Part shown: in pieces, positions 10,478 through 64,000 of the stretch
Layout of the letters: every line of letters starts with the position of its first letter
How positions within the stretch are numbered: the stretch's first letter is position 1
DNA from: a virus
Taxonomy: Duplodnaviria; Caudoviricetes
Virus record (IMG/VR): IMGVR_UViG_3300028048_000072
Location: 1 to 64,000 of that record
DNA length: 64,000 nucleotides
Reading direction: 5' to 3' (one strand)
Notes under the pieces: model-generated
Database searches by the model: none
The model's input: the letters and a program-made list of their open reading frames with translations, nothing else
Told to the model about the DNA's origin: nothing
Program-made: the position numbers and the translations under genes

Positions 10478-12244
10478 TTATTTTCTAATATAAATTACTT
10501 TTGTAGTACCACAATTATAGATTCTATAAATTTTATTCTTGAAACAGATATTCTTTTCTGTATCATTTTCATCAAAATATTTTATAATTCCATTTTCATA
10601 CATTTTCTTTAATTTATTCTTTCTAAAATTACTTTTATGAATTCTTTTATCTTTTACTACAAAATAATAATTCGGTGAGTTTTCTTTTACAATTTTAAAA
10701 CCAACATTAAAATATCCTTTACCATTAAATAAAGATTTATCAATATAACTTACAATTTTATGACAATTATTTATTTTACAGAAATCTTTAATCAACTTTG
10801 AAAATCCACCGACCACTTGATAATTTAATTTAGTTGCCATTCTTGTTAATTCTGTATTTCCATCATGAAAGCCTTTTAATGTGATAGAAATCATCTGTAC
10901 AATTTCATTTTCATAAATAAGTGCATAAAATTTATTTGACCTACAATATCCTTGAATATGATTTTTATTAAGAAATTTTTTAGCATCTTTTCTAGTAATT
11001 TCTTTAAACTCACATTTTCTAGCAAATATTTTTCTTTTATAAATTCCCAATCTTGATGAAATTATTGATTTGCAAATATCTTTTTTATATATCCAATCAT
11101 CTTCAAAAATGTGAATTAAATCTATTCCTTTTTCCTTACATAATTTTGTTTTGTTTAAATGATAATTTTTATCTTTTCCTAGTTCATTATGCCATCTTAA
11201 TCCATTGAATTCTATAGCCAATTTTTTATTTGGAATATAAATATCTAATTCTTTAGGAGAGATTATTCTTTTACAATTTTTAATAATTTTATCTTTATAA
11301 ACAGATTTTACAAAATCAAATACTTCATTTTCTTCATAAGAAGTTCCACTCATTTCTGTTGTAGAAAAATACTCCTTTAATTTTTCAAAAGAATATTCAT
11401 CTACACAAAGATTATTTTTTATCATTATATAATTTAAATTCAATGATTTTATTGCTAAAGTAACAGTAGTTCTATCCTTATCAAAAATCTTTGATAATTC
11501 TGATGCAGAATATAAATTAGATTTATTTTTCATCAATTTTTCAATTCTGCTTTTATTTGCTTTATCCTTTATTTCTTGAAGTTGAAACGGATGTTCTACT
11601 CCATATTTTTCAAGATTATTTTTCTTTGTAAATTCTTTTCTATGAGAAATAAAATATTCCAATTTTTTAATATCTTCATCATGATAAAACGCATTGTGCA
11701 TTATATAAATTGGTTTAATTTTTAATTGCTTAAAATATTTTGTTATCAAACATCTATTTAAATTAAATTTTTTACATAATTGTCGATGTGATGTTAATTT
11801 TAATCCCAATTTAATTTCTTTTTCTTTTATCTTTTCATTTAAAATATTTTTATATCCATGAGTTTTATTTAATTTTTTCTGTAATTCATCTTGTTTTTCT
11901 TCATATTCTTCTTTCAATAATTTTTTTACAGAATCAAATTCATCTGCAGAAAAATAAATATTTCCATCTAACAAACATTCTTCACCACGAATGTTTAATT
12001 TCTTTAATCGTCTGTCTAATGTCGATTTATCAATATTTAATTTTTGGCAAATGTTTTTCTTAGTATATCTGTTTCTTATTTCTTTTTGTTTATCAATTTC
12101 TGATTTTATTTTTTCAAAATTAGATTCTGTTAATTCATAAGGTTTACATTTTAAAAAATGATTCAATGTTAATTTTGTTAGACCCGTTCTTCTTATAATT
12201 TCATTTTTAGATAAAAAAACATCTGATTTACAATCCATAACCAT
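10478..12244 (-). CDS. Free-standing Hef-like endonuclease: wHTH repeats + KYG repeat + PD-(D/E)xK nuclease + GNAT-like C-terminus (copy 1)
   Basis: ELDIYIPNKKLAIEFNGLRWH; ELTRMATKLNYQVVGGFSKL; SYIDKSLFNGKGYFNVGF; RIYNCG. Confidence 0.75.
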   Translation of the reverse strand: MVMDCKSDVFLSKNEIIRRTGLTKLTLNHFLKCKPYELTESNFEKIKSEIDKQKEIRNRYTKKNICQKLNIDKSTLDRRLKKLNIRGEECLLDGNIYFSADEFDSVKKLLKEEYEEKQDELQKKLNKTHGYKNILNEKIKEKEIKLGLKLTSHRQLCKKFNLNRCLITKYFKQLKIKPIYIMHNAFYHDEDIKKLEYFISHRKEFTKKNNLEKYGVEHPFQLQEIKDKANKSRIEKLMKNKSNLYSASELSKIFDKDRTTVTLAIKSLNLNYIMIKNNLCVDEYSFEKLKEYFSTTEMSGTSYEENEVFDFVKSVYKDKIIKNCKRIISPKELDIYIPNKKLAIEFNGLRWHNELGKDKNYHLNKTKLCKEKGIDLIHIFEDDWIYKKDICKSIISSRLGIYKRKIFARKCEFKEITRKDAKKFLNKNHIQGYCRSNKFYALIYENEIVQMISITLKGFHDGNTELTRMATKLNYQVVGGFSKLIKDFCKINNCHKIVSYIDKSLFNGKGYFNVGFKIVKENSPNYYFVVKDKRIHKSNFRKNKLKKMYENGIIKYFDENDTEKNICFKNKIYRIYNCGTTKVIYIRK

Positions 12245-12302: not shown

Positions 12303-12480
12303 TTTATATTAAATTAAGTTTGGTGAACTACGCACCGCCTTTTAAGGCGGTGGCTTTTTGTTTTCGCTTCAACGGCTCAATTTGCATAACCAATCGACTA
12401 GCAATTGATTGTGTAGTGACTGATACCTCAGCGGAGGCTTGTTCCAAGCACTCAGTTCTTTTAGTCGAACCAAACAGTTT
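12303..12480 (-). ncRNA. Predicted TnpB omegaRNA/reRNA; guide approximately CAAACTTAATTTAATATAAA
   Basis: TnpB reRNAs are known to overlap the tnpB 3' end and right end, with the guide taken from flanking DNA. Hairpin 12333..12352 and the TTCAC end are seen; the 5' boundary is approximate. Confidence 0.55.
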
Positions 12481-13617
12481 TACATTTTTAGAAGCATGAA
12501 CATCCCTATCTCTTGAATATCCGCAATCACAAACATAAGTTCTTTCATCAAGTGTGACCATATTCAGACATCCACAATTAGGACAAAATTTAGTTGTAGG
12601 TAGCCATTTGGAAATTTTGTAACTTCTTCCACTCTTTTCAAGAGCAACAAGTTTTCCTTTAACTCTACCTAAGCAAGATGATTGTACTTGTCTTCCAAAA
12701 GAAAATCCACATTTTTTCATCTGCTTATTTTTCTTCCATTTTGTAATCTGCTCATCTTGAAAATAAATTACATCATAATTTTTAAGAAGATGAGAAACAA
12801 TCTTATTTGCAACATCATCTTTTTGATTAGATATATGTTCATACTCCTTCTGAATTTGATTAAGCAATTTGTAATAACGCTTTGAACCTTTTTGTTTCTT
12901 GTGCAACTGTCGTTGCAAATACTTCAAGTATTCAGTTTCTTGCTTATTACAATCAAACTTTTCTCCATCAGAAGTTGTTATTGCAGTCTTAATGCCAAAA
13001 TCAAGACCAACTGTTTTATTTGTTTTTATTACATTACTTTCTTTAGGAAAGAATACAGTAACCATTATATAAAATCCACTAGATTTACGAATTAAATTCG
13101 CATTTGCTATCTCAAAATTAGGAATATTTATAAACTGTTCCAATCCGTAAACTGATAATTTCCTAAACATAGGAATTGAAACTGTTTTAGATGATTTTAT
13201 TTTTAACATTCCTGTACGAAGATAGATTCTATTTACACTCTTTCTGAATTTTAACGCACCAACTTGAATTCCTTTCTTTTTTGCTTTTGAAAGATTACAA
13301 ATGTCAGTTTTTACAGAATTTACTAATTCTTGATGTACTCCAGTCTGCAATGTAATTTTCCGTTCGGCATTGTTTCCATCCTTGTCTTTATTTGTTACAG
13401 TTCTATGGTCTTTATAATTATAATTAAAAATATCATTTGAACCAATTACATCATTAATTACCCACTTGGCTTGTCTAAAGCAATCGTTTAATTTTTGAAA
13501 ATCTTCTTTAGAAGTATGATGACAATTAATCTTCAACTCAAATACTTTCAGATATTGAGTTTTTCTTTTAAGATAAGTTTCTTTATGACTTTGTTTAATT
13601 TTCTCGTTCTTTGTCAT
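12328..13617 (-). CDS. tnpB: RNA-guided nuclease TnpB
   Basis: RuvC-I VGLDFGIK, KKQKGSKRY bridge region, CPNCG...CDCG zinc finger, RuvC-III DRDVHASKN. Confidence 0.9.
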   Translation of the reverse strand: MTKNEKIKQSHKETYLKRKTQYLKVFELKINCHHTSKEDFQKLNDCFRQAKWVINDVIGSNDIFNYNYKDHRTVTNKDKDGNNAERKITLQTGVHQELVNSVKTDICNLSKAKKKGIQVGALKFRKSVNRIYLRTGMLKIKSSKTVSIPMFRKLSVYGLEQFINIPNFEIANANLIRKSSGFYIMVTVFFPKESNVIKTNKTVGLDFGIKTAITTSDGEKFDCNKQETEYLKYLQRQLHKKQKGSKRYYKLLNQIQKEYEHISNQKDDVANKIVSHLLKNYDVIYFQDEQITKWKKNKQMKKCGFSFGRQVQSSCLGRVKGKLVALEKSGRSYKISKWLPTTKFCPNCGCLNMVTLDERTYVCDCGYSRDRDVHASKNVKLFGSTKRTECLEQASAEVSVTTQSIASRLVMQIEPLKRKQKATALKGGA

Positions 13618-14368: not shown

Positions 14369-16105
14369 TTGAATAATCCAACTTTTTCTAATAAAATTAT
14401 TTGTGGAGGAAATATGAAAACTGTATCTGAAATAAGAAAAATCATTTATGATTTACATGGTATAAAATTATCTTATGATGAAATTTGTAAACATTCAAAA
14501 TCAGTAAATCGAATTAGTAGAAAAGTAACATATATTAACGATGATAAAGATGTAATTTCATATTTCTCACTACCTTCTACAGAAAGAAGAAAAATAACTT
14601 GTATTAAAAAATACGGTGAAAATTATATTTCTGATTTTTCCAATAAATCAAAAAATGGAATGATTACAATTGGTGATATTGCAAATGAATTACATAAAGA
14701 TAAAGATTCATTGTTAAAAATATTAAATCATATTAACATAACACCTTTAATTAAAGGAAATAAAAAATTATACAACATTGATGTTATAGATAAAATTAAA
14801 AACTTTATAAATGAACATCCAAACTATTCATCAGAATTTAGAAATGAAAGTATTTATAAAAAATATGGAGTAAATAACGCATCTCAATCTAAAGAAATAA
14901 AAGATAAAAAGAAACAATCATATATTAATCATTATGGATGTGATAATTATATGAAAACAGATGAAGCAAAAGAAAAATTTTCATCTATCGCAAAAAATAA
15001 TTCTGAATCAAGAAAAATTAAAAGAGAAGAAAATTTAGCAAACCTTATAAAAGAATATGAAGATAAAAACGATTGTTTATCCTCTATCCATATAAATGAA
15101 AAATATAATTTAAATTACAATAAATATGGACACATGGCTTTAAAAATTAGAGAATCCAATGTCGATTATACAGTTTATAAAAATAATATTTTTGTAAAAA
15201 ATACGGATATTGATAAATTATTATCTTACATTAGAATCTGTAAAGATTTTCATGTTTCTTCATCAGAAAAAGAAGTTTGTGATTTTATAAAATCTATTTA
15301 TAGTGGTGAAGTTTTAGAAAATAATCGCCACATTATAACACCATCTGAACTTGATATTTTTATTCCAAATAAAAATGTAGCCATAGAATATAACGGATTA
15401 TATTATCATTCTATGATTGATAAAAATTATCATTATAATAAATATGAAAAATGTAAAGATAAAGGAATAAGATTAATTCAATTTTTTGAAGATGAATGGA
15501 TTTTAAAAAATAAAATCTGTAAATCTATAATTAAATCTTCTCTAGGAATTTATGAAAGAAAAATATTCGCTAGAAATTGCAAATTTGAAGAAATAAATTC
15601 TGAAACATATAAATCATTTTTAAATGAAAATCACATTCAAGGATGTGTAAATTCTAAATGGATGTATGGTTTATTTTATAATAATGAACTAGTACAATGC
15701 ATAGGTTTAGGTGCATCACGATTTAAAAAAGGTGAAATTGAACTTCATAGAATGTGTACAAAATTAAACACTCAAATTGTAGGTGGATTTTCTAAATTAA
15801 TGAAAAACACATGTAAAGAATTAAATATAAATAAAGTATATTCTTATGTGGATTTAAGATTATTTAATGGTAAAGGTTATGAATCTAGTTCATGGAAAAT
15901 TGTAGGAAGAAGTAAACCTAATTATTTTTATATTCCTAAAGGATGTAATATTAGAGAATCAAGAATTAAATATCAGAAACATAAATTAAATAAAATACTA
16001 AAATCTTTTGATAAAAATTTATCTGAAAAAGATAATATGTTTAATAACGGATACCGAATAATCTATGATTGTGGAAATCTTAAAGTGAAATATATTAATT
16101 CTTAG
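14369..16105 (+). CDS. Hef-like endonuclease with GNAT-like C-terminus (copy 2); likely start 14414
   Basis: ELDIFIPNKNVAIEYNGLYYH; ELHRMCTKLNTQIVGGFSKL; SYVDLRLFNGKGY; KYG repeats; GGAGG before ATG 14414. Confidence 0.75.
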   Translation: MNNPTFSNKIICGGNMKTVSEIRKIIYDLHGIKLSYDEICKHSKSVNRISRKVTYINDDKDVISYFSLPSTERRKITCIKKYGENYISDFSNKSKNGMITIGDIANELHKDKDSLLKILNHINITPLIKGNKKLYNIDVIDKIKNFINEHPNYSSEFRNESIYKKYGVNNASQSKEIKDKKKQSYINHYGCDNYMKTDEAKEKFSSIAKNNSESRKIKREENLANLIKEYEDKNDCLSSIHINEKYNLNYNKYGHMALKIRESNVDYTVYKNNIFVKNTDIDKLLSYIRICKDFHVSSSEKEVCDFIKSIYSGEVLENNRHIITPSELDIFIPNKNVAIEYNGLYYHSMIDKNYHYNKYEKCKDKGIRLIQFFEDEWILKNKICKSIIKSSLGIYERKIFARNCKFEEINSETYKSFLNENHIQGCVNSKWMYGLFYNNELVQCIGLGASRFKKGEIELHRMCTKLNTQIVGGFSKLMKNTCKELNINKVYSYVDLRLFNGKGYESSSWKIVGRSKPNYFYIPKGCNIRESRIKYQKHKLNKILKSFDKNLSEKDNMFNNGYRIIYDCGNLKVKYINS

Positions 16106-16189: not shown

Positions 16190-17797
16190 TTAAATTTTTA
16201 ACTTTAATCTTATTTTACCACAATCCCAAATCCAATTAATACCATTTTTCGCCATATTTTCAAATTCAGTTTCATTTTTATTAAAATATTTTAATTCACC
16301 AATTTCTACTTTTCTTTTAATTTTATTTTTTTGATAATTCATTCTATTAACTTTTCTATCATTAACAATATACCAATATGTAGGTGGACATTCCATATCA
16401 AATTTAAATCCTACTTGTTCATAACCTTTACCATTAAACCATGCTCTAAATACATAAGAATTCATTTCAGTTATATCAAATGTTTTTATGGAATAATTTA
16501 CTAATTTTGAAAACCCACCCATAACTTGACAATTTAATTTTGTAGCCATTCGATTTAATTCCCATATATTATTTAATCCATTATAATTAATTCCTACAGA
16601 TTGAACTAATTCATCATTATAAAATAATCCTATATAATGAGATGCTTTAGCGAAACCTTGTAAATGATTTTCATCCATAAAATTTTTATAAACATTAAAG
16701 TTCAATTCTTTTATTTCACATTTTCTCGCAAATATTTTTCTTTCATAAATTCCCAATGAACTTGCAATCATGGATTTCACAATATCCTTATTATAAAGCC
16801 AATCATCTTCGTATACATGAATTAATCGAATATTCTTTTGTTCACAAAGTTTTGTTTTATTAAAATGATAATTTTTATCTTTAAATTTATTACTATGATA
16901 ATAAACACCATTAAATTCAATTGCTACATTTTTATTAGGAACATAAATATCAAGTTCTAATGGAAATATTACCTTTCTATCATTTTCAACAATTTTATCA
17001 TCATAAATAGATTTAATAAATTCTAATAATTCTTTTTCTACATTAGAAACTCTTTTAGAAACAGATATTTTTATATAATCTTCTATTTTATATAATTCTG
17101 ATTCATGTATATAATATGAATCAGAAATTTTCATAATATTAATATTTTTAATTTTAAGAATATCTAACATATTATCATAACATCTTTCATATTTTTGACA
17201 AAGTTCTGATACAGAAAATAAATTTTCAAATTTTTTTAATCTAATTTTCTTATTTTCATTTTTTACAAATTTAGATTTATCAATGATTTCTTTATTTTTC
17301 ATTGGATTATCCACACCATATTTTTTAATCATCGATTTTTTATGAATTTCTGATGAAAAAGAACCGTATGTTTTATCACCATATTTTTTCAATTTAGTAT
17401 TAAACATTTTATTTAAAATATCTTTATTTTGAGAAGGATTTTCTACACCATGATTTTTTAAACTTGTAAATTTCTTTTTATTCTTAATTTCATTAGATTG
17501 AGAAATATTATTTACACCATATTTTTCTTTAACTGTATTATCTGCTTTTTCTTTAACAGATTTTAATTTCATAGGATTATCTACACCATATTTTTTCAAA
17601 AAAGTTTGTTTTTGAAAAAATGTTCTTGTGTTTGGATTTTCTTTAATAAAAAGATTTAATTTATCAAAATCTTCTTGTGAAAAAATTAAAAATTTTCCTT
17701 TTTTAATGAGTTGTATATTTAAATATTCTCTTACCTTTTTTAAAGTTGCTTTATTGAGATTAAAATATTGATTTACATACTTTACTGTATAATCCAT
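16190..17797 (-). CDS. Hef-like endonuclease with GNAT-like C-terminus (copy 3)
   Basis: Five KYG-type repeats; ELDIYVPNKNVAIEFNGVYYH; ELNRMATKLNCQVMGGFSKL; WIWDCG. Confidence 0.75.
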   Translation of the reverse strand: MDYTVKYVNQYFNLNKATLKKVREYLNIQLIKKGKFLIFSQEDFDKLNLFIKENPNTRTFFQKQTFLKKYGVDNPMKLKSVKEKADNTVKEKYGVNNISQSNEIKNKKKFTSLKNHGVENPSQNKDILNKMFNTKLKKYGDKTYGSFSSEIHKKSMIKKYGVDNPMKNKEIIDKSKFVKNENKKIRLKKFENLFSVSELCQKYERCYDNMLDILKIKNINIMKISDSYYIHESELYKIEDYIKISVSKRVSNVEKELLEFIKSIYDDKIVENDRKVIFPLELDIYVPNKNVAIEFNGVYYHSNKFKDKNYHFNKTKLCEQKNIRLIHVYEDDWLYNKDIVKSMIASSLGIYERKIFARKCEIKELNFNVYKNFMDENHLQGFAKASHYIGLFYNDELVQSVGINYNGLNNIWELNRMATKLNCQVMGGFSKLVNYSIKTFDITEMNSYVFRAWFNGKGYEQVGFKFDMECPPTYWYIVNDRKVNRMNYQKNKIKRKVEIGELKYFNKNETEFENMAKNGINWIWDCGKIRLKLKI

Positions 17798-19703: not shown

Positions 19704-21362
19704 TTATGATTTAATATATTTAACCTTAATCGTACCACAATCATAAATTCTATAATAACCATTATTTTCCATATTTTCAAATTCTGTTTTATTAGAATCG
19801 TATGATTTCAATAATCCTTCTTTATAATATTTTTCAATTTTATTTTTCATAAAAGTGTATCTAGGATGTATTCTCTTTTTATTAAATTGTTTTGGACTTA
19901 CATACATATATGTCGGTGGATTAATATGTGAAATTTCAAAACCTACTTTAAAATATCCTTTACCATCAAACATTCTTCTTGAAATATATGATACAATTTC
20001 ATCACAATTTAATTCTTTACTAACATGGTTTATTAATTTTGAAAATCCACCCATAACTTGACAATTTAATTTAGTTGCCATTCGATTTAACTCCAATTCA
20101 CCTTTTTTATGTGATGCTTTTGTTAATCCTACACCTTGAATTAATTCATCATTATCATAAAGTCCATATCTATATTCTGCTCTTGCATATCCTTGTATAT
20201 GATTTTTGTTTAAGAAAGATTTCCATTCTTCATTTGAAATTTCTTTAAATGTTAATTTTCTAGCCATATATTTTTTATCGTAAATTCCTAATGCACCACA
20301 AATAATAGACTTACAAATATCTTTCTTTTCTTCCCATTCATAATCCCAAAATTGAATCAATCTGATTCCCTTTTCTTCACAAGCAATTGTCTTATTAAGA
20401 TGATAATTTTTATCTTTATTTTTATGCCAAAAATAACCATTTAATTCTATTGCAAGATTTTTAGATGGAATATAAATATCTAATTCTTTAGGTGGAATTA
20501 TTTTCTTAGAATTTTCAATAATTTCAAATCTTAATGATTTTATAAAATCACAAATTTCTTTTTCAACAAATGAATAATTAGCCATTTTTGTTTTAGAAAA
20601 ATAATCTTCCAATACAGAAATATCTTTTTCTAAGATATAACTTGAACCACATATATAATAAGATTGTAATTTTAAATTAATTACTACATCAGAAATTGTA
20701 TTAGGTAATTTATCAAACATAATACCTAATTCTTTATAAGATATTTTATCGGATATTTGAGATTTTGAGTTGCGTTTTCTAGTATTCATTTTTTGTTCAT
20801 TCATTTTTTGTTTTTCTATTTCAGATAAATTTTTCCAATAATTACTTAATTTCTTTTTACCTTCATCTGATTGAGAAAAATATAATACACCATAATGATT
20901 GATAATCGTTTTTTCTTTTTTATCTTTAATTGATTGTACTTTTGAGATATTATCAACTCCATATCTTTCAACACAAGTCTTTTTATAATTTTCAGATTTT
21001 CGTTTTAAAGAATCTTTATCAATTGAATTTTTAATTTTTTCTTTTACTGAATCTAATTTGTTAGTAGAATCTACACCGTATTTTTTCATACAAGTATTAT
21101 GATAAAATAAAGACTTTGTGTTTTTATTCTGATTTAAAAAATCTACAATTTTATCAACATCTGATTTTAAATAAAGTGGATTATTTGCATAATTTTTATA
21201 TTGAGTTTCTATATTAAGATATTCTATTACATTCTTTATTACAGATGATTTTCTATTTACAATTTTAGAAATTCCTTTTACTGTTTCTAATTTTTCATCA
21301 TTTAAATAATAATATTGGTCTGCTTTTCTAATCAATCCACTCATATCAATATTATCAAACAA
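19704..21362 (-). CDS. Hef-like endonuclease with GNAT-like C-terminus (copy 4)
   Basis: ELDIYIPSKNLAIELNGYFWH; ELNRMATKLNCQVMGGFSKL; SYISRRMFDGKGYFKVGF; three KYG-type repeats. Confidence 0.75.
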   Translation of the reverse strand: MFDNIDMSGLIRKADQYYYLNDEKLETVKGISKIVNRKSSVIKNVIEYLNIETQYKNYANNPLYLKSDVDKIVDFLNQNKNTKSLFYHNTCMKKYGVDSTNKLDSVKEKIKNSIDKDSLKRKSENYKKTCVERYGVDNISKVQSIKDKKEKTIINHYGVLYFSQSDEGKKKLSNYWKNLSEIEKQKMNEQKMNTRKRNSKSQISDKISYKELGIMFDKLPNTISDVVINLKLQSYYICGSSYILEKDISVLEDYFSKTKMANYSFVEKEICDFIKSLRFEIIENSKKIIPPKELDIYIPSKNLAIELNGYFWHKNKDKNYHLNKTIACEEKGIRLIQFWDYEWEEKKDICKSIICGALGIYDKKYMARKLTFKEISNEEWKSFLNKNHIQGYARAEYRYGLYDNDELIQGVGLTKASHKKGELELNRMATKLNCQVMGGFSKLINHVSKELNCDEIVSYISRRMFDGKGYFKVGFEISHINPPTYMYVSPKQFNKKRIHPRYTFMKNKIEKYYKEGLLKSYDSNKTEFENMENNGYYRIYDCGTIKVKYIKS

Positions 21363-21440: not shown

Positions 21441-23264
21441 TTAAAGACTTGTTACGGCTTCTTCTACATCCACACCACTCTTGTAAAGAGTAAGGTTCAA
21501 TCTTATCTTTTTTGAATACTTTTTCGGAACAATCGCTACTTCTACCACCAATGTTTCTTGATTTCTCATTTCTGCAGTATTATTTGTATTATCACAAAGA
21601 ACATAATAATCTTCCAAAGCATTTGCATAAGCAGAAAGAATTGAATTACATCCACTTCTTACATCTGTATATGCAGTATCATCAATAAGTTTACCAATTC
21701 TCTTAGGTAATACATTCTTTTCGATAAGTTCAAGAATTGTATCTACAAGAGATGAAATACCAATATCAGAAAGTACACTAAGATTTGTATGTCTAGTTGA
21801 TGCGTTTTCAATAAATACACCATAAGTTTTACTATTAATTACCGCATTTACAAAATTATCTGCAAGTTTTTCAAGTTGCGATTGATTAGCATTATAAGAA
21901 AGTTTTGTAATAGATGAACCCAATTGACCACCGATGCCATTTTGGTCTAACCACATCGGTTCACCATATCCATTATTCAAAATATCAACCATCTTACCAA
22001 CAATCAATCCCATGTTTGAACAAAGGAAATTATTTCCATTGTAAACATCTTTATGAATTCCCCATGCCAAAACATAGCAATATAAACCACGATTGTTTAC
22101 ATTTCTATGAGCAATAGCAGGGTCTGCAAGAATATTTTCAACGGATGTATTAGGTGAACAATACATAAATCTACATCGTTTCTGATAACTTTCTCTCAAT
22201 GTTTCAAATTTTGAAATTACTTCATCAGATGAAGTTGCATCAAATACGATTTTTACATTGTATGTTTCTGTATCCATTAAAGCATCATAAACATTTGCTA
22301 AATCTGAACCACTAATTTCTGCACCTCTATCACCACCATTTAATTCTACATAAGTTGTATCACTAGTAAATGAATCAAATGTATCATGATTTACATAAGG
22401 TGTGAAAAGAAGTTGATTATCATTGAAAATATTTTCAATGTAAATATTATTTCCTTCAGAATCTTTTGAGTTTTCTGTCAATCCTACAGTAAATGGTGAA
22501 TTGAGTAATTCTACATATTCATCTTTAATAGGATTATATCTTGATACATGAATATCAAACGCTGTATCAACATACTTATTTGTTACTACTTTTACTTTCA
22601 AATCATCTTTCTGACAATCTCTATCAAAAAGTACAAATAAAGTAGATGACATATCAGTTTTATATGTTGCTACAATATCACCTTCAGGAGCAACAGCAAA
22701 TGTCAATGTGAGTTTACCATTACTTCTATCATAACTTGCAGATGTAAATGTTTCATCTGTATCAGTAATAATTTCTACACTTTCATCAGTAGAAGAAATT
22801 TCCAAAGCAACACCATTTACAGTAATGCCAATACTATTATTAATGTAATTTTCATAATTTGGTAATGTCGCAATAAATGTAGTTTCTACAGAATTACCAC
22901 TTCCAACTTTAGATGCACTTTCAATTTCAGAAAAATCAGAAATTTCTTTAGAAGAAACACCATTTACAAACGGTACTGTTCCGTTAGGTGTAATGAAAAC
23001 TCCACCATATTTACCGTTTTTATATGGAGATGCTATATATAAATCTGATTTTGCTACAACATCTAACGCATCTTGAATTGAAGGATAATTTTTTGACGGA
23101 TAACCAAATGTATCAATTACTTTTTGTGTTTCACCTTTTGAAAAAAGATAAAAATCTTCACATCCTTTAGGTGATTTAATTACTGTTGCACATACAACTT
23201 GTGAAGTAGTAGATGCTCTATTAGTATTGTCGTTTAAATTAGATTTTATTCGCCAACTTTCCAT
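21441..23264 (-). CDS. Tail sheath protein (gp18-like)
   Basis: 'VELNGGDRG'; C-terminal 'YYVLCDNTNNTAEMRNQETLVVEVAIVPKKYSKKIRL' sheath signature. Confidence 0.9.
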   Translation of the reverse strand: MESWRIKSNLNDNTNRASTTSQVVCATVIKSPKGCEDFYLFSKGETQKVIDTFGYPSKNYPSIQDALDVVAKSDLYIASPYKNGKYGGVFITPNGTVPFVNGVSSKEISDFSEIESASKVGSGNSVETTFIATLPNYENYINNSIGITVNGVALEISSTDESVEIITDTDETFTSASYDRSNGKLTLTFAVAPEGDIVATYKTDMSSTLFVLFDRDCQKDDLKVKVVTNKYVDTAFDIHVSRYNPIKDEYVELLNSPFTVGLTENSKDSEGNNIYIENIFNDNQLLFTPYVNHDTFDSFTSDTTYVELNGGDRGAEISGSDLANVYDALMDTETYNVKIVFDATSSDEVISKFETLRESYQKRCRFMYCSPNTSVENILADPAIAHRNVNNRGLYCYVLAWGIHKDVYNGNNFLCSNMGLIVGKMVDILNNGYGEPMWLDQNGIGGQLGSSITKLSYNANQSQLEKLADNFVNAVINSKTYGVFIENASTRHTNLSVLSDIGISSLVDTILELIEKNVLPKRIGKLIDDTAYTDVRSGCNSILSAYANALEDYYVLCDNTNNTAEMRNQETLVVEVAIVPKKYSKKIRLNLTLYKSGVDVEEAVTSL

Positions 23265-40025: not shown

Positions 40026-42617
40026 ATGAGTAAACTTCAATTGAGAAGTTTGGAAGAAATTAAAACAAAATATCCTTATTTGGATATTAATGATAAGTAT
40101 AAACAGATTTTTAATATTCTTGAAAATACAAATGATATGTTGAATATTGTAGGGGAAGCGGGTTGTGGAAAAGCACAACCTTTAGATACAATTATTCCTA
40201 CACCTAATGGATATAAAAGATTTGGTGATTTGAAAGTAGGTGATTACGTTTTTGACAGAAACGGAAAACCAACAAAAGTAATCGGTGTTTATCCTAGAGG
40301 TAAACTTGATTTATATAAGGTTACTCTTTCAGATGGTAGAGAAACATTTTGTAACGATGACCATTTGTGGTCTTATTATACATCTAGGGGAAATCTTAAA
40401 ACTGTTTCACTTAGAGAAATGATTGATAAAGGAATCATTAAAGAAACTCGTTCTAAAAACGATAATCGTATAAGAAAAAATTGTAGATTTAAAATTCCTA
40501 CACATAATCAAGTTGAATTTAATTTTCATGATAAATTACCAATTGACCCTTATGTGATAGGGGCATTTATCGGAAACGGATGTAATTTAGAAAAACAATT
40601 ATCATTTTCTAGTAATGATGAATTTACTGTATCGGAATGTTCTAAACTTTTAAATTTTGATTACGATAAATTATCTGATAAAAATTATACATGGGTCTTT
40701 AGATATAAAGAAAAATGTGAAAATCCTAATAAAATTAGACCTCAAACATTGGAAATTTTTTCTGAATTTAAAAATGAACTTTGTGTTAAATCTAATTTAA
40801 AAAGAATACCACAAATATATAAAACTTCATCGATTAAAAATCGATTGTCTTTAATTCAAGGTCTGTTTGATACAGATGGTAGTATTACAGAAAGTGATGG
40901 AAGAATGAATTTATCATATTCTACAACTTCTATAAATTTAGCAAACGATATTAAGGAAGTTCTTTTATCATTAGGATATGTATCATCAATTCACCTTTAT
41001 AAAAGAGATAATAAAAACGATTGTTATACTCTTAATGTAAACATTAATGATTTTGAAAAATATAATTTTTTTAGACTTCCTAGAAAGTTAGAAAAAATAA
41101 AATGTAGAAATAAAAATAGAAATTATAATATGGTTGGAATTAAAAAAGTTACTCCAATGAACACAAAAGTTGAAATGATGTGCATTAAAGTAGATAATGA
41201 TGAAGAATTATATCTTACAAATGATTACATTGTAACACATAACACTACACTACTTGAAATCCTAAATTTTGCCATTAAAGGTAATGTTATGATTTGTGCG
41301 AGTACGGGTGTTGCTAGTTCATTACTTTCATCTGCAGATGGTGTTTTTGCTACTACAATTCATTCTGCTTTTAATATTGCACCACAGACAATTTATTCTA
41401 ATAGTTTTCCTAAATTAAATTTTCTTAAAAAAGAAGTAATTAGTAATACAGATTGTTTGATTATAGATGAAATGTCTATGGTAAACGCATCTTTATTTGA
41501 TTATCTTATTAATTTAATCAAATATACTCGGCATGGTAGTTTACCTAGAATTATTTTGTTTTCTGATATTTTGCAGTTAGAGCCTGTAATTGGAAATAAT
41601 GATGTTGTAACCAATTATTTTAAAAACCTTTATAAAGGAAATGTTTTTTATTTTAATTCAAATGCTTTTAAGGATTTAAATTTCAAAACAATTCTTTTGA
41701 ATAAAGTTTATAGACAGAATGGAGATAATGAATTTAAAGATATTCTCAATAGAATTCGTGTAGGAAAAGCAACAAGATATGATTTGGATAAATTAAATAC
41801 TAGAGTTGCTACAGAAGATGAAGAATTGTATTGGGAAATTGACCATCCAACTTCATTAAAAATTGTTACTACCAATAAGAACGCAGAAAGATATAATAAT
41901 ATGCGATATGAATTATTGGAAGGTGAAGAATTTATATATAGAGCAAATATGACAGAATCGTTTGTTGCATCTGATTTATATAAAAGTGGTTTATACCCTG
42001 AAGAAATTAAATTAAAAATTGGTGCATCAGTAATGATTTTGAAAAACGATATTAATAAAGAATATGTAAACGGTGATATGGGTATCGTTGAATCATGTGA
42101 TGTTGAAAATAGAACTGTTCGTGTAAAACTTAATAGTGGTAAACTTGTTACCGTTCATGAATATGAAACAGATGAATATGACTATTATGTTGAAAAAAAT
42201 GATGATGGTAGTACATCAGTATATACTAGAGTTAAATCTTCATATATAAATGTTCCGTTAAAATTAGCTTATGCTACAACAGTTCATAAATCACAAGGTT
42301 TGACATTAGATTATGGATGTTTTGATAAGGGAAGTTGGGTAACTAATGCTAGTGTTTATGTTGCTTTATCAAGATTTAAAAGATTAGAAGGATTCATTTT
42401 AAGTAAACCATTGGAAATGAAAGATATTCTGATTAATGATGAAGCATTGAGTTTCTTAAACAATGTAGAATCAGAAAATAATTCAATATTGGATGATAAA
42501 GAATATGTTGAAGAAAAAGAAGAAAAGAAAGATATAAGAAGTGAATTTTTATCTAAATTGGAAAGTTTAGATGAAGGTAAATTAAATAAACTGATGAAAT
42601 TAATAGACAATGTATAA
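40026..42617 (+). CDS. Pif1/RecD-like SF1B helicase containing an intein
   Basis: GEAGCGK|TT Walker A split by the intein; IIDEMSM; LNKVYRQ; LAYATTVHKSQGLTLD; YVALSR. Confidence 0.9.
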   Translation: MSKLQLRSLEEIKTKYPYLDINDKYKQIFNILENTNDMLNIVGEAGCGKAQPLDTIIPTPNGYKRFGDLKVGDYVFDRNGKPTKVIGVYPRGKLDLYKVTLSDGRETFCNDDHLWSYYTSRGNLKTVSLREMIDKGIIKETRSKNDNRIRKNCRFKIPTHNQVEFNFHDKLPIDPYVIGAFIGNGCNLEKQLSFSSNDEFTVSECSKLLNFDYDKLSDKNYTWVFRYKEKCENPNKIRPQTLEIFSEFKNELCVKSNLKRIPQIYKTSSIKNRLSLIQGLFDTDGSITESDGRMNLSYSTTSINLANDIKEVLLSLGYVSSIHLYKRDNKNDCYTLNVNINDFEKYNFFRLPRKLEKIKCRNKNRNYNMVGIKKVTPMNTKVEMMCIKVDNDEELYLTNDYIVTHNTTLLEILNFAIKGNVMICASTGVASSLLSSADGVFATTIHSAFNIAPQTIYSNSFPKLNFLKKEVISNTDCLIIDEMSMVNASLFDYLINLIKYTRHGSLPRIILFSDILQLEPVIGNNDVVTNYFKNLYKGNVFYFNSNAFKDLNFKTILLNKVYRQNGDNEFKDILNRIRVGKATRYDLDKLNTRVATEDEELYWEIDHPTSLKIVTTNKNAERYNNMRYELLEGEEFIYRANMTESFVASDLYKSGLYPEEIKLKIGASVMILKNDINKEYVNGDMGIVESCDVENRTVRVKLNSGKLVTVHEYETDEYDYYVEKNDDGSTSVYTRVKSSYINVPLKLAYATTVHKSQGLTLDYGCFDKGSWVTNASVYVALSRFKRLEGFILSKPLEMKDILINDEALSFLNNVESENNSILDDKEYVEEKEEKKDIRSEFLSKLESLDEGKLNKLMKLIDNV
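40173..41243 (+). mobile_element. Intein (357 aa, Ala1, LAGLIDADG endonuclease), class-3-type
   Basis: AQPLDT...DHLW...MMCIKV...IVTHN|T; LAGLIDADG motifs GAFIGNG and GLFDTDG. Confidence 0.9.
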
Positions 42618-44500: not shown

Positions 44501-46582
44501 ATGATTGTTTATCCTAAATGTATGGATGAAATTGTAAAAAAAGGACATGGTTATTATCTCAATGATTTTAAATTTTACACAAAAGAAAGTATTAGTAAAA
44601 TTTTACATAAAAAGAACACAACGATTCAATTGATTATAGATTATTTAGGAATAAAATCATATCCAAATAAATGGAATAAAAATTTATATACAGAATCAGA
44701 TTTTTGTCAAATACAAGAATTTGTGAAGGAAAATCCAAACACAAAAGTTTTTTTCACCAAACAAACAAATCTTAAACGATATGGTGTGGATTCTTTTACT
44801 AAAACTGAAAAATTTAAAAATGAAATTAAAAACACTTGTATGAAGAAATATGGAGTAGAACATTATTCTAAAACTAAAGAATATAAAGATAAATGTAAAA
44901 AAACAAATTTAAAGCGTTTCGGATGTGAATATTCTTTGCAGAGTGAAGAAGTTAGAAATAAAGGAAAACTAACTAATTTTGAAAAATACGGAAATGTAGT
45001 TTATAGTAAAACTGATGATTTTAAAGAAAAATATAAAAACGCAATGATTAAAAATTATGGTGTAGAACATTATTCTCAAACAGATGAATTTAAAGAAAAA
45101 TGTAAAAAAACATCATTAGAAAGATATGGTGAAGAACATTATATTAACGTTGAAAAAATTAAAAATACATCTATTAAAAAATATGGAGTAAGTAGTTATA
45201 CAAAAACACAAGAATATAAAGATAAAGTAAATAAAACCAATTTAGAAAAATATGGAACTTTATGGACATTACAGAATAAAGAAATTAGAAATAAAATTAA
45301 AGAAACAAATTTAAAAAAATATGGTTGTGAAAATCCATATCAAGCAGAAGAAATAAAAGAAAAAATAAAGAAAACAAATTTAAACCGTTATGGTGTAGAA
45401 CATCCATCTCAATCTGATGAAATACACAACAAAATGTTTTCTCATTTAAAATCAAAGAATGACGGTTATTTATCTAAAGCGGAAAAGAAATTTGCAGAAA
45501 TGCTTACTAATAGAAATATAAATTTTAAGCATGAGTATTTTTATAACAATAAACATTGGGATTTTGCTATTTTTGTAGATAATAATTTAAATACTTTGGT
45601 TGAAATTGATGGCGAATATAATCATGGTTTAATTTCTGATTTTAACGGTGTTCATGTTAAAGACCAAGAAGATTATGGTAGATTTTCATTGATAGATGAA
45701 AATATAAAGTTTATAGCAATTGATTCTAAAAAGATTGATGAAAGTTTTTCTCTTTTATTTGAAACATTAAATATTGATTATGAAAAATGGATTAATAATA
45801 TATTAAATTCACTTCCTGAAGAATTCCCATATCATGAATATTCTGATAAAAGAATGATGAATGATTGGAAACATTTATGTGAATATGAATATAAAGTTGG
45901 TCAAAAATTGGGATATTCTATTATAAATAATTTTCATAAATCAATTTATTCATGTAGTATTAAAAATAAACCATCTCCATTAAACGCATGGAATGATAAA
46001 AAATTATTGGAAAAATGCGTAAGAAACAGATTTATTTATAAATCGATTTTAAGTTCACAAAACATTGCAGATGGATTTAATGTTTGCAAAATTGCACCAA
46101 AGATTTCAATATTTAATCCTAGTTTAGCAAGATATTTAACAGAAAAATATCTGAATGAGTATGATATTATTTTTGACCCTTTCAGTGGATTTAGTGGAAG
46201 AATGTTAGGTGTATGTTCTTTAGGTAAAAAATACATTGGTCAAGATATTAATGAAACTACTATAAAAGAAAGCGAATTAATTAAAAATAAATTTAATTTG
46301 GATGCTACATTGAAAATAAAAGATGTTTTTGATTCTTATGGAGAATATGATTGTTTGTTTACATGTTCCCCTTATTCTGATAAAGAAAATTGGAATAATA
46401 AAAATCAGAAAATATTATTTTGTGATGAATGGATAGATGTTTGTTTAAATCATTTCAAGTGCAAATCTTATTTATTTGTTGTAGATAATACAGAAAAATA
46501 TAAAGATTATATTGTAGAAGAAATTGATAACATTTCACATTTTAATTATAATAAAGAATATGTAGTTTATATAACTATATAA
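44501..46582 (+). CDS. wHTH + 10 KYG repeats + PD-(D/E)xK nuclease + amino-DNA methyltransferase fusion
   Basis: SKAEKKF...WDFAIF...VEIDGEYNH nuclease; IFDPFSGFSGR (SAM-binding motif I) and FTCSPY (motif IV variant). Confidence 0.75.
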   Translation: MIVYPKCMDEIVKKGHGYYLNDFKFYTKESISKILHKKNTTIQLIIDYLGIKSYPNKWNKNLYTESDFCQIQEFVKENPNTKVFFTKQTNLKRYGVDSFTKTEKFKNEIKNTCMKKYGVEHYSKTKEYKDKCKKTNLKRFGCEYSLQSEEVRNKGKLTNFEKYGNVVYSKTDDFKEKYKNAMIKNYGVEHYSQTDEFKEKCKKTSLERYGEEHYINVEKIKNTSIKKYGVSSYTKTQEYKDKVNKTNLEKYGTLWTLQNKEIRNKIKETNLKKYGCENPYQAEEIKEKIKKTNLNRYGVEHPSQSDEIHNKMFSHLKSKNDGYLSKAEKKFAEMLTNRNINFKHEYFYNNKHWDFAIFVDNNLNTLVEIDGEYNHGLISDFNGVHVKDQEDYGRFSLIDENIKFIAIDSKKIDESFSLLFETLNIDYEKWINNILNSLPEEFPYHEYSDKRMMNDWKHLCEYEYKVGQKLGYSIINNFHKSIYSCSIKNKPSPLNAWNDKKLLEKCVRNRFIYKSILSSQNIADGFNVCKIAPKISIFNPSLARYLTEKYLNEYDIIFDPFSGFSGRMLGVCSLGKKYIGQDINETTIKESELIKNKFNLDATLKIKDVFDSYGEYDCLFTCSPYSDKENWNNKNQKILFCDEWIDVCLNHFKCKSYLFVVDNTEKYKDYIVEEIDNISHFNYNKEYVVYITI

Positions 46583-62095: not shown

Positions 62096-64000
62096 ATGAT
62101 AAATGAAATCGAATTTTCTGATAACGTCAGAAGTAAAATGCTCAATGGTATGGAAAAGGTTTCTAAAGTAGTAAGTGCTACACTCGGCCCGAAAGGAAGA
62201 TTGATTGCCGTTGAACAACAGTTGGGTTCACCTATTTTGTCAAAAGATGGTGTTTTTTGTGCAAAAGCCGTAGGTAAACTCAAAGACCCTTATGAAAATA
62301 TGGGTGCAAATCTTTTGAAAGAAGTTTCTTCTAAAACTAATGAAACTGATGGTGACGGCCCGCAACCTCTTTATGCAAAAGTTCTTACACCAAATGGATT
62401 TGTAAGAATTGATTCATTGAAAATTGGTGATGAAATTTGTAGAATTGATGGAACTACACAGAAAGTAATTGGTATTTTCCCTAAAGGAAAGAAAGAACTT
62501 TATAGGGTTCATTTTGACCACGGGGATTATGTTGAATGTTGTGCAGACCATTTGTGGACAGTAACAAATACAAATTCTTCATCTAAAAAATTGCAAACAT
62601 TAACTGTTTCTGAAATGATTGAAAAAGGAATTTATAGAAATAATAAAGAATATAAATCTAGTAAATTTTTTGTTCCAAACAATAAATCATTTTTTAATAC
62701 AAAAAATGTTGTACTTGACCCATTCTTAGTTGGTGTTTTGATTGGAGATGGTTGTTTTACAGAAAAACAAGATTATTGTGAAATTACTATCGGATACAAA
62801 AAAGAACAGAAAATTATTCCAAATTTGGTTTTGCCTGAAGGAATTTTCCTAAAGAGAAATGATTATCCTAAGCGAAACGCATGTAGATTTAAGTTTGAAG
62901 GTAAAACAAAAGATGGTAAAACAATGCTCGATTTGTTGAAAGATATTGGTTTGTTTGGATGTAATTCATTTACAAAACACATTCCTACAGATTATTTGAT
63001 TAATTCTTTTGAAAATCGTGAAAAATTGTTGAATGGTCTTATGGTTACAGACGGTTATCTTAATTATAAAAATCTATTTGAATATAGCACCGTAAGTAAA
63101 CAGTTGTGTGATGATATTGTTTTCTTGTTTAAGAGTTTGGGAATTGATGTTTATACACAATTAAAAGAAAGAAGTATTGAAAAAGGTGCTTTTTCTAATA
63201 CACCCGTTTATAGAATTTCTCAATTGAAAGGATATAAATATGGTAGACGAATTACTGCTATTGAAGATATGCACAAAGAAGAGGAAATGATGTGTATTAA
63301 AGTTAGTGGTGATGAAGAACTTTATATTACTGATAATTTTATCACTACTCATAATACTTCAACTTCTTGTGTACTCGCATTTGCAATGGCAAAAGAAGGA
63401 ATGAAAGCCGTTAGTGGTGGTGTACCACCTATTTCACTTAAACGTGGTATTGATAAAGCATGTGAAAAAGTTATTGAAGAAATTAAGAAAGTAACAAAAC
63501 CAATTGAAAGTAATGAAGATTTAATTCATATTGCTACAATTTCTGCAAACAATGATGAATCTATCGGTTCTATTATTGCCGAAGCCGTAGAAAAAGTTGG
63601 TAAAAACGGTGTAATTACTACGGGCGAATCTTCTACATCAGAAACAACAATTGAATTTATGGAAGGTATGCGATTTGATAGAGGTATGTTGTCACCATAC
63701 TTTACTACAAATAATACTAATGGACTTATTTGTGAATATAAAAATCCATATATTCTTGTTACTGATAAAAATATTACAAATATTAATGAAATTGCAGGTA
63801 TTCTACAAACTGTATCTCAAAGTGGTAGACCGTTGGCAATCGTTTGTGATGACATGTCTAATGAAGTTCTTACTGTTTTGGTAAAGAATAAACTTAATGG
63901 TGCATTGCCATCAGTAGTTGTAAAAGCACCTTATTTTGGTGAAGTAAAAAAAGCCTTTTTGGAAGATTTGGCTATTTTGGTCGGGGCAACATACTTTACA
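62096..64000 (+). CDS. groEL: GroEL-like chaperonin with an intein; runs off the right edge; not in the ORF track
   Basis: GGAGG-ATG at 62096; ATLGPKGR, SKDGV, DPYENMGA, GDG|TST, LKRGIDKA, IATISANND, EGMRFDRGMLSPYF, VVKAPYFG. Confidence 0.95.
   Translation, partial: MINEIEFSDNVRSKMLNGMEKVSKVVSATLGPKGRLIAVEQQLGSPILSKDGVFCAKAVGKLKDPYENMGANLLKEVSSKTNETDGDGPQPLYAKVLTPNGFVRIDSLKIGDEICRIDGTTQKVIGIFPKGKKELYRVHFDHGDYVECCADHLWTVTNTNSSSKKLQTLTVSEMIEKGIYRNNKEYKSSKFFVPNNKSFFNTKNVVLDPFLVGVLIGDGCFTEKQDYCEITIGYKKEQKIIPNLVLPEGIFLKRNDYPKRNACRFKFEGKTKDGKTMLDLLKDIGLFGCNSFTKHIPTDYLINSFENREKLLNGLMVTDGYLNYKNLFEYSTVSKQLCDDIVFLFKSLGIDVYTQLKERSIEKGAFSNTPVYRISQLKGYKYGRRITAIEDMHKEEEMMCIKVSGDEELYITDNFITTHNTSTSCVLAFAMAKEGMKAVSGGVPPISLKRGIDKACEKVIEEIKKVTKPIESNEDLIHIATISANNDESIGSIIAEAVEKVGKNGVITTGESSTSETTIEFMEGMRFDRGMLSPYFTTNNTNGLICEYKNPYILVTDKNITNINEIAGILQTVSQSGRPLAIVCDDMSNEVLTVLVKNKLNGALPSVVVKAPYFGEVKKAFLEDLAILVGATYFT
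62360..63355 (+). mobile_element. Intein (332 aa, Pro1, LAGLIDADG endonuclease), class-3-type, in groEL
   Basis: PQPLYAKVLTPNG...CADHLW...EMMCIKV...ITTHN|T; LAGLIDADG motifs GVLIGDG and GLMVTDG. Confidence 0.9.

Follow-up and report, generated by a model that had tools for sequence, protein, structure and literature searches.

We analysed a window of 64,000 bases (bases 1-64000 of the 132,722-bp IMG/VR viral record IMGVR_UViG_3300028048_000072), at the right-hand edge of which lies a phage groEL gene interrupted by an intein. The record is ~72% complete by the CheckV estimate and has ~27% G+C (26.7% for the genome); positions beyond the window are given in the coordinates of the full record (G000:C1). 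A single open frame runs from 62078 (TTG) or 62096 (ATG), past the window edge, to a stop at G000:C1:64705, giving a precursor of 875 amino acids (aa) from the TTG or 869 aa from the ATG. Since a GGAGG lies ~10 nt 5' of the ATG and public gene calls of the identical protein are 869 aa long, we take the ATG at 62096 as the start, and the numbering of the last residue before the insert as Gly88 holds. The precursor matches the Pfam model Cpn60_TCP1 (PF00118) in two stretches (2.2e-23, 83 bits against a cut-off of 34.3). On the 1AON chain, the match of the N-terminal extein ends at position 87 and that of the C-terminal extein begins at 88, with neither loss nor duplication; with the insert removed, a full 537-aa GroEL is obtained, with Cpn60 homology over its whole length. 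An earlier sequence-only reading of this DNA had placed a 332-aa intein after Gly88, at GDG/T (the slash marks the insertion point here and below), and this placement is borne out: the intein occupies 62360-63355 and the exteins abut seamlessly. That reading had also remarked that groEL is missing from the list of open reading frames, and the frame is indeed listed only with open ends, as it runs past the window edge. Of the span that it gave for the gene, 62096-64000, the start stands and the end does not, 64000 being the edge of the window. The gene is made up as follows.

62096..64000, continuing beyond the window to G000:C1:64705, + strand: groEL precursor gene, ATG start, 869 aa (GGAGG 5' of the ATG, Pfam Cpn60_TCP1 2.2e-23, public gene calls of 869 aa)

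62096..62359, + strand: N-extein, 88 aa, ending in ETDGDG, its last residue corresponding to Gly88 of E. coli GroEL (aligned to GroEL chains up to position 87/88, E 3e-22)

62360..63355, + strand: class 3 intein, 332 aa, Pro1 to Asn332 (PQPL...TTHN), between Gly88 and Thr89 (GDG/T)

63356..64000, continuing to G000:C1:64702 with the stop at 64705, + strand: C-extein, 449 aa in all, starting with TSTSCVLA, its first residue corresponding to Thr89 of E. coli GroEL (GroEL positions 87/88 to ~520, E 5e-125)

Class 3 inteins are defined by a non-nucleophilic residue 1, co-varying Trp (B:12), Cys (F:4) and Thr (G:5), and Ser or Thr at +1, and their prototype, the DnaB intein of mycobacteriophage Bethlehem (MP-Be DnaB), has Pro1, His65, Trp67, Cys320, Thr339, Asn341 and Thr+1 (PMC2807308). 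The insert shows all of these features, namely Pro1, His64/Trp66, Cys312, Thr330-His331-Asn332 and Thr+1. The Pro start, the DHLW, MMCIKV and TTHN motifs and the LAGLIDADG type named by the sequence-only reading are thus all confirmed, with the same W-C-T signature as MP-Be DnaB. The parts of the intein are the following.

62360..62680, + strand: N-terminal half of the HINT splicing domain, boundary approximate (secondary structure of the AlphaFold (AF2) model; profile match to gp41-1, MchDnaB-1 and Msm DnaBi1)

62549..62557, + strand: block B His64-Leu65-Trp66 (B:10 and B:12; DHLW), with His in 120 and Trp in 119 of 121 GroEL inteins, invariant in the 58-row alignment

62681..63229, + strand: LAGLIDADG homing-endonuclease domain, boundaries approximate (Pfam Hom_end and LAGLIDADG_3; PI-SceI by profile, 7e-19, and by Foldseek, 4.7e-16)

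62726..62755, + strand: LAGLIDADG motif 1, LVGVLIGDGC, with the predicted catalytic Asp130 at 62747-62749 (Asp in 118 of 121 relatives)

63026..63058, + strand: LAGLIDADG motif 2, LLNGLMVTDGY, with the predicted catalytic Asp231 at 63050-63052 (Asp in 120 of 121 relatives)

63230..63355, + strand: C-terminal part of the splicing domain, blocks F and G (profile match, AF2 model)

63293..63295, + strand: block F Cys312 (F:4; EMMCIKV), the predicted initiating nucleophile (Cys in 121 of 121 relatives, invariant in the family alignment)

63347..63358, + strand: block G Thr330-His331-Asn332 and Thr+1, the first residue of the C-extein (THN/T in 121 of 121 relatives)

A profile built from 58 family members matched solved inteins of class 3 or similar to class 3, with values of 4.4e-23 for gp41-1, 2e-15 for MchDnaB-1 (6rix) and 2e-14 for Msm DnaBi1 (6bs8), and its middle part matched PI-SceI (7e-19). 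An AF2 model, built from the intein and the six residues adjoining it at each end, reached a predicted local distance difference test score (pLDDT) of 93.1 and a predicted template modelling score (pTM) of 0.91. Submitted to Foldseek, it retrieved PI-SceI (E 4.7e-16, template modelling (TM) score 0.66), TliVMA, PI-PfuI and I-DmoI, while its HINT part retrieved 6riz, 6rix/6riy and 6bs8, with a probability of 1.00 for 6rix/6riy/6bs8. At the level of Pfam, the insert matches Hom_end (1.4e-8), LAGLIDADG_3 (2.3e-5) and, under the cut-off, Intein_splicing (2.2e-4). By all sequence and fold criteria, the insert is a class 3 intein with an intact two-motif LAGLIDADG endonuclease. The sub-threshold scores of the Pfam splicing-domain models could be taken as a sign of decay, that is, of an insert that no longer splices and of a groEL that is effectively a pseudogene, in a genome crowded with selfish elements, including a TnpB gene between groEL and a Cpn10-like gene. 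We consider this very improbable: the 875 codons contain neither stop nor frameshift, each catalytic position is that of the family consensus, and the exteins retain the ATP-site residues of GroEL in alignments to GroEL chains (SKDG, GDG/TST, VEDTL for the Asp398 equivalent and CGGG, with the KDG, GDG and GGG cores).

With only the intein part as query, a set of 5.8 billion proteins gave 442 matches; almost all of the best 120 are Cpn60 proteins 775-935 aa long, with inteins 43-67% identical to the one described here. Because more than 100 other Cpn60 proteins are matched in this way with E values of 1e-80 to 1e-142, the presence of the insert in GroEL is far beyond chance. An alignment of the top GroEL inteins revealed that the Asp-Gly at -2/-1, Pro1, the block F Cys, THN and Thr+1 are each conserved in 121/121 sequences, the block B His in 120 and the Trp in 119; GroEL inteins also share extra cysteines, Cys60 being invariant, Cys27 nearly invariant and Cys61 present in 100/121. 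When one representative was taken per 50% identity cluster, roughly 100 clusters matched the precursor end to end in a single stretch. IMG/VR yielded 480 confirmed relatives; of the 80 best, ~46 encode the whole GroEL with its intein, and their viral contigs reach 240 kb in length. A search of 185,579 species-representative genomes found GroEL+intein only on two short contigs of metagenome-assembled genomes (7.8 and 5.1 kb), which are probably phage DNA. The 50,697 deposited phage genomes include 1030 matching records, none of which reaches 80% coverage of the precursor, and every deposited phage GroEL is without the insert. The GroEL intein is thus widespread among uncultured phages, whereas cultured phages and cells essentially lack it. 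Any rarity implied by the sequence-only reading finds no support here, since the public Cpn60 proteins with this intein at this position number in the hundreds. That reading had proposed a search for Cpn60 proteins with Hint domains; many with the insert exist, but the Joint Genome Institute (JGI) labels of the insert-bearing proteins read only 'chaperonin GroEL', save for one split call, 'intein/homing endonuclease'. Such gene calls of 850-920 aa named 'GroEL' should be flagged as intein-bearing. Bacterial GroEL inteins were considered and rejected: the Hymenobacter matches that seemed to reach into the extein are SNF2 helicase inteins. A few GroEL inteins start with Cys, not Pro (GDG/CQPLW and GDG/CQPY, at L016 8244-9236, L033 8244-9236 and L021 8226-9212); they retain the Trp, the Cys (F:4) and THN, and might splice by either route.

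Some clusters drawn at 90% identity contain both long and short GroEL forms. The long P0098 (918 aa) and the short P0144 (585 aa) are 99% identical in the N-extein and 94% in the C-extein, and the junction of the short allele, AGDG/TTSS, is exactly the one predicted for removal of PQPL...THN. Over 7260 pairs of intein-bearing GroELs, the intein, with a median identity of 0.52 against 0.29 for the extein, is better conserved than the extein in 99% of the pairs, and the two identities are uncorrelated (Spearman 0.002); as these proteins were picked for their similarity in the intein, its identity is somewhat inflated. Homing would account for two observations, the higher conservation of the intein relative to groEL and the existence of almost identical alleles that differ in its presence. 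Together with the conserved endonuclease residues, the insert-free alleles and the identities of intein and extein form the pattern expected of an active homing element among divergent hosts. We conclude, with a probability of about 0.85, that the element is a class 3 intein able to splice and to move, equipped with a LAGLIDADG homing endonuclease and inserted in the GDG/TT phosphate-binding loop of a phage group I chaperonin.

Several points weigh against this conclusion. We infer splicing with its branched intermediates, as well as endonuclease activity, DNA cleavage and homing, from the sequence; the Pfam Intein_splicing and Hint models stay under their cut-offs for this divergent intein class; the selection by intein similarity favours the intein in the pairwise comparison; and the trees described below settle neither the root nor the donor host protein, so that no donor is named. 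In addition, all six members (6/6) of the phage's own 90% cluster are 869 aa long and carry the intein, insert-free alleles being seen only in relatives. This last observation would suit an intein that has become fixed in this lineage, still splicing but inherited vertically only, with an endonuclease that is inactive or has no target left. The copy in the window also branches early and alone within the GroEL clade, its nearest inteins being 59-68% identical, and its G+C of 28.5% has equilibrated to the 26.7% of the genome. We regard such fixation as doubtful, given that neither a catalytic Asp residue nor a LAGLIDADG helix has been lost, that the model of the endonuclease domain is of high confidence and that the insert is polymorphic for presence and absence across the family.

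For a mobile, splicing intein at this position, the following course of events can be proposed. The groEL gene would be translated as an 869-aa precursor without proper ATP binding. By analogy with the class 3 pathway of MP-Be DnaB, Cys312 of block F would attack the Gly88-Pro1 bond to form a branched thioester, the N-extein would be transferred to the hydroxyl of Thr+1, and cyclisation of Asn332 would free the intein; an O-to-N acyl shift would then create the native Gly88-Thr89 bond of a 537-aa GroEL, which presumably partners the product of the phage's own Cpn10-like gene. The freed endonuclease would be expected to cut the insert-free groEL of co-infecting relatives, into which the intein would be copied. 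With its phosphate-binding loop split by the insert, the precursor should be inactive, and the dependence of chaperonin activity on splicing, already proposed by the sequence-only reading, seems well founded.

An inactive precursor is also what a domesticated conditional switch would need, the intein being kept as a gate on the chaperonin that responds to oxidation of Cys312, to zinc or to temperature and thereby times capsid folding. The insertion lies in the ATP site, so that the precursor is necessarily inactive, and Cys27, Cys60 and Cys61 are conserved in GroEL inteins. There are precedents: a Cys48-Cys118 disulfide that forms under hydrogen peroxide reversibly traps a class 3 DnaB intein in M. 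smegmatis (PMC6195587), and splicing is temperature-dependent in mutants of the prototype (PMC2807308). However, PMC6195587 describes the mycobacterial partner Cys48 as non-conserved and lineage-specific, and Cys60 is conserved through the whole P-loop class 3 family, so that it reveals no GroEL-specific adaptation. A strongly conserved endonuclease combined with insert-free alleles is the signature of an ordinary homing element, and deposited phage GroELs without the insert are the rule, so the function of the chaperonin needs no intein. We therefore judge a domesticated gate unlikely; the redox or temperature switch proposed by the sequence-only reading is speculation, and nothing in this analysis supports it.

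The distant relatives of the GroEL intein (28-36% identity) are class 3 inteins in P-loop ATPases and PhoH. They are inserted at RPSMGK/AQPL...THN/TAFALN in DnaB, at DDMGLGK/AQPL in SNF2, at MRGR/AQPL in PhoH and at GEPGVGK/AQPL...THN/TAIVEGLA in a Clp-type ATPase; further hosts are RecA/Sak4-like, Dda-like and other phage P-loop proteins or helicases. The first residue is Ala in 94/106 inteins of the P-loop family, with a few Ser, Glu or Thr, against Pro in 35/38 and Cys in 3/38 of the GroEL clade in the set used for trees. We built trees from sets of 144 and 62 inteins under the LG+G4 and C20 models. The GroEL inteins all fall on one side of a branch, which has a Shimodaira-Hasegawa-like approximate likelihood ratio test (SH-aLRT) value of 99 without the Cys1 outlier L021 and of 88 with it (C20); L021 is a long-branch basal member of the GroEL clade, and the intein of the window, with its closest relatives at 59-68% intein identity, is the early and solitary branch mentioned above. 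The trees are most simply read as one entry into GroEL, apparently from the class 3 family of helicase and other ATPase P-loops. In the LG+G4 tree, a group of phage helicase inteins that includes a second intein of the window adjoins the GroEL clade (SH-aLRT 86); the C20 tree has no resolution there. A 2025 survey of actinobacteriophage inteins lists 19 host genes, with no chaperonin among them, and argues that similar nucleotide-binding sites permit extein switching. The GroEL intein fits this idea, although the GroEL loop is no P-loop.

Two observations concern the P-loop relatives themselves. Clp-type AAA+ chaperone ATPases in bacterial genomes carry class 3 inteins in their Walker A loops (L122, from Thiorhodospira sibirica, L137 and L138), and the Clp-type ATPase is another protein-quality-control host for this intein family. 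The class 3 inteins at the MRGR/T site of PhoH-like bacterial proteins form a well-supported clade (SH-aLRT 100; L097, L103, L104, L119, L128, L145 and others), in which the insertion follows an Arg and not the usual Gly-Lys.

The second intein of the window lies in a helicase gene.

40026..42617, + strand: Dda/Pif1/RecD-like helicase gene (phrog_325 Dda-like helicase, 7.7e-69; PIF1, AAA_19, AAA_30 and LAGLIDADG_3)

40173..41243, + strand: second class 3 intein, 357 aa, in the P-loop (Walker A) of the helicase, GEAGCGK/AQPL...VTHN/TTLLEI (tblastn 1.7e-38)

It bears the signature Ala1, DHLW, MMCIKV and THN/T, and groups with other inteins of Dda-like helicases (SH-aLRT 91). Its LAGLIDADG motif 1 reads IGAFIGNG, with Asn in place of the expected catalytic Asp, and its endonuclease may be impaired. 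The GroEL and helicase inteins are the only two of this kind that tblastn detected in the record. We ruled out a recent copying of the helicase intein into groEL, the two being 32% identical and belonging to different clades; a DNA target common to the two insertion sites is likewise unsupported, with 25/60 bases identical in register. On these three grounds, the two inteins are separate residents of the phage.

Compared with characterized systems, the GroEL intein shares with that of MP-Be DnaB Pro1, the block B His and Trp, the block F Cys, Thr-His-Asn and Thr+1, as well as a similar length (341 aa there, 332 aa here), a LAGLIDADG endonuclease, a phage origin and a site in a nucleotide-binding loop (PMC2807308). 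It differs from it in that the prototype resides in a helicase-like P-loop and has Gln at -1, where Gly is found here, and in that the splicing chemistry was established by experiment there and is predicted from sequence here (PMC2807308). The M. smegmatis DnaBi1 (6BS8), M. chimaera DnaB1 (6RIX/6RIY) and gp41-1 (6QAZ/6RIZ) inteins are related in their splicing domain (2e-14 to 4e-23), match structurally and share W-C-T or THN features, but they lack an endonuclease, being mini or split inteins of DnaB or gp41 helicases; gp41-1 is of class 1 (Cys1), and the cysteine used by the DnaBi1 redox trap has no demonstrated counterpart in the GroEL intein. The P-loop class 3 inteins, at the 28-36% identity given above, have the same xQPL start, THN/T end and endonuclease type, but mostly begin with Ala1 after the GK or GR of a Walker A or PhoH motif, whereas the GroEL clade mostly begins with Pro1 after the GDG of an unrelated phosphate loop. 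PI-SceI (VMA1) and PI-PfuI/TliVMA, the best structural matches to the whole model, likewise have a LAGLIDADG endonuclease embedded in a HINT splicing domain; they belong to class 1 (Cys1), reside in vacuolar-type ATPase or ribonucleotide reductase and are only 12-16% identical. The intein-free GroELs of Bacteroides phages DAC/SJC, Flavobacterium phage immuto and Vibrio phages are, like the spliced product predicted here, group I chaperonins of large tailed phages, with 38-45% extein identity, some of them accompanied by GroES; AR9 and Staphylococcus jumbo phages are further examples from the literature.

The sequence-only reading suggested that no chaperonin intein had been described, and we found none in the full-text literature within reach, which did not extend to subscription journals and InBase. 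Among papers in which inteins and chaperonins both occur, the accessible parts of work on Staphylococcus jumbo phages, DC4, magroviruses and Campylobacter phage IBB_35, and of a jumbo-phage overview, describe no chaperonin intein; nor do those of the 2025 actinobacteriophage survey, the class 3 structure paper and the RadA intein paper. The chaperonin is thus apparently an undescribed intein host, the mechanism itself being ordinary. A more ambitious account would join this apparent novelty to a regulatory role, with a first documented family of chaperonin inteins, derived by one switch from a helicase P-loop to GroEL, in which the intein is retained as a post-translational gate (redox, metal or temperature) linking capsid folding to host physiology; like the gate by itself, this combination strikes us as improbable.

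The setting of groEL is that of a phage, the record also encoding a tail sheath, a tail lysin, a clamp loader and the Dda helicase. The tail sheath protein (window 21441-23264) is at most 23% identical to that of any deposited phage, the matches being Agrobacterium/Rhizobium and Enterobacter myoviruses, which places the record in an uncultured lineage of myoviruses. Downstream of groEL, a Cpn10-like frame at G000:C1:66271-66483 gives a weak match (19.5 bits, or 22.1 with neighbours, against a cut-off of 21.1). A TnpB-type gene (OrfB_IS605 with a Cas12f1-like TNB domain) at G000:C1:64878-66176 (L163 879-2174) lies between groEL and this Cpn10/GroES-like frame, and a mobile element thus seems to separate the chaperonin gene from its co-chaperonin gene. 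The window further contains five paralogous homing-endonuclease genes of ~550-690 aa (phrog_3339/phrog_559; DUF7487), at 10478-12244, 14369-16105, 16190-17797, 19704-21362 and 44501-46582, and a transposase gene at 12328-13617; with these, the phage is unusually rich in selfish elements.

The GroEL intein makes a chaperonin one of the proteins known to host inteins. Class 3 inteins were initially believed to be limited to helicase-like P-loop proteins; they are found here in a structurally unrelated nucleotide-binding loop, across very divergent phage GroELs, and their spread into this loop therefore supports the view that nucleotide-binding sites serve as stepping stones in extein switching. 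For protein engineers, the GroEL family could be of interest as an extensive natural collection of Pro1 class 3 inteins that have Gly-1 and Thr+1. Lastly, a phage GroEL that would be dead until spliced may offer a simple system for asking whether inteins ever act as switches.

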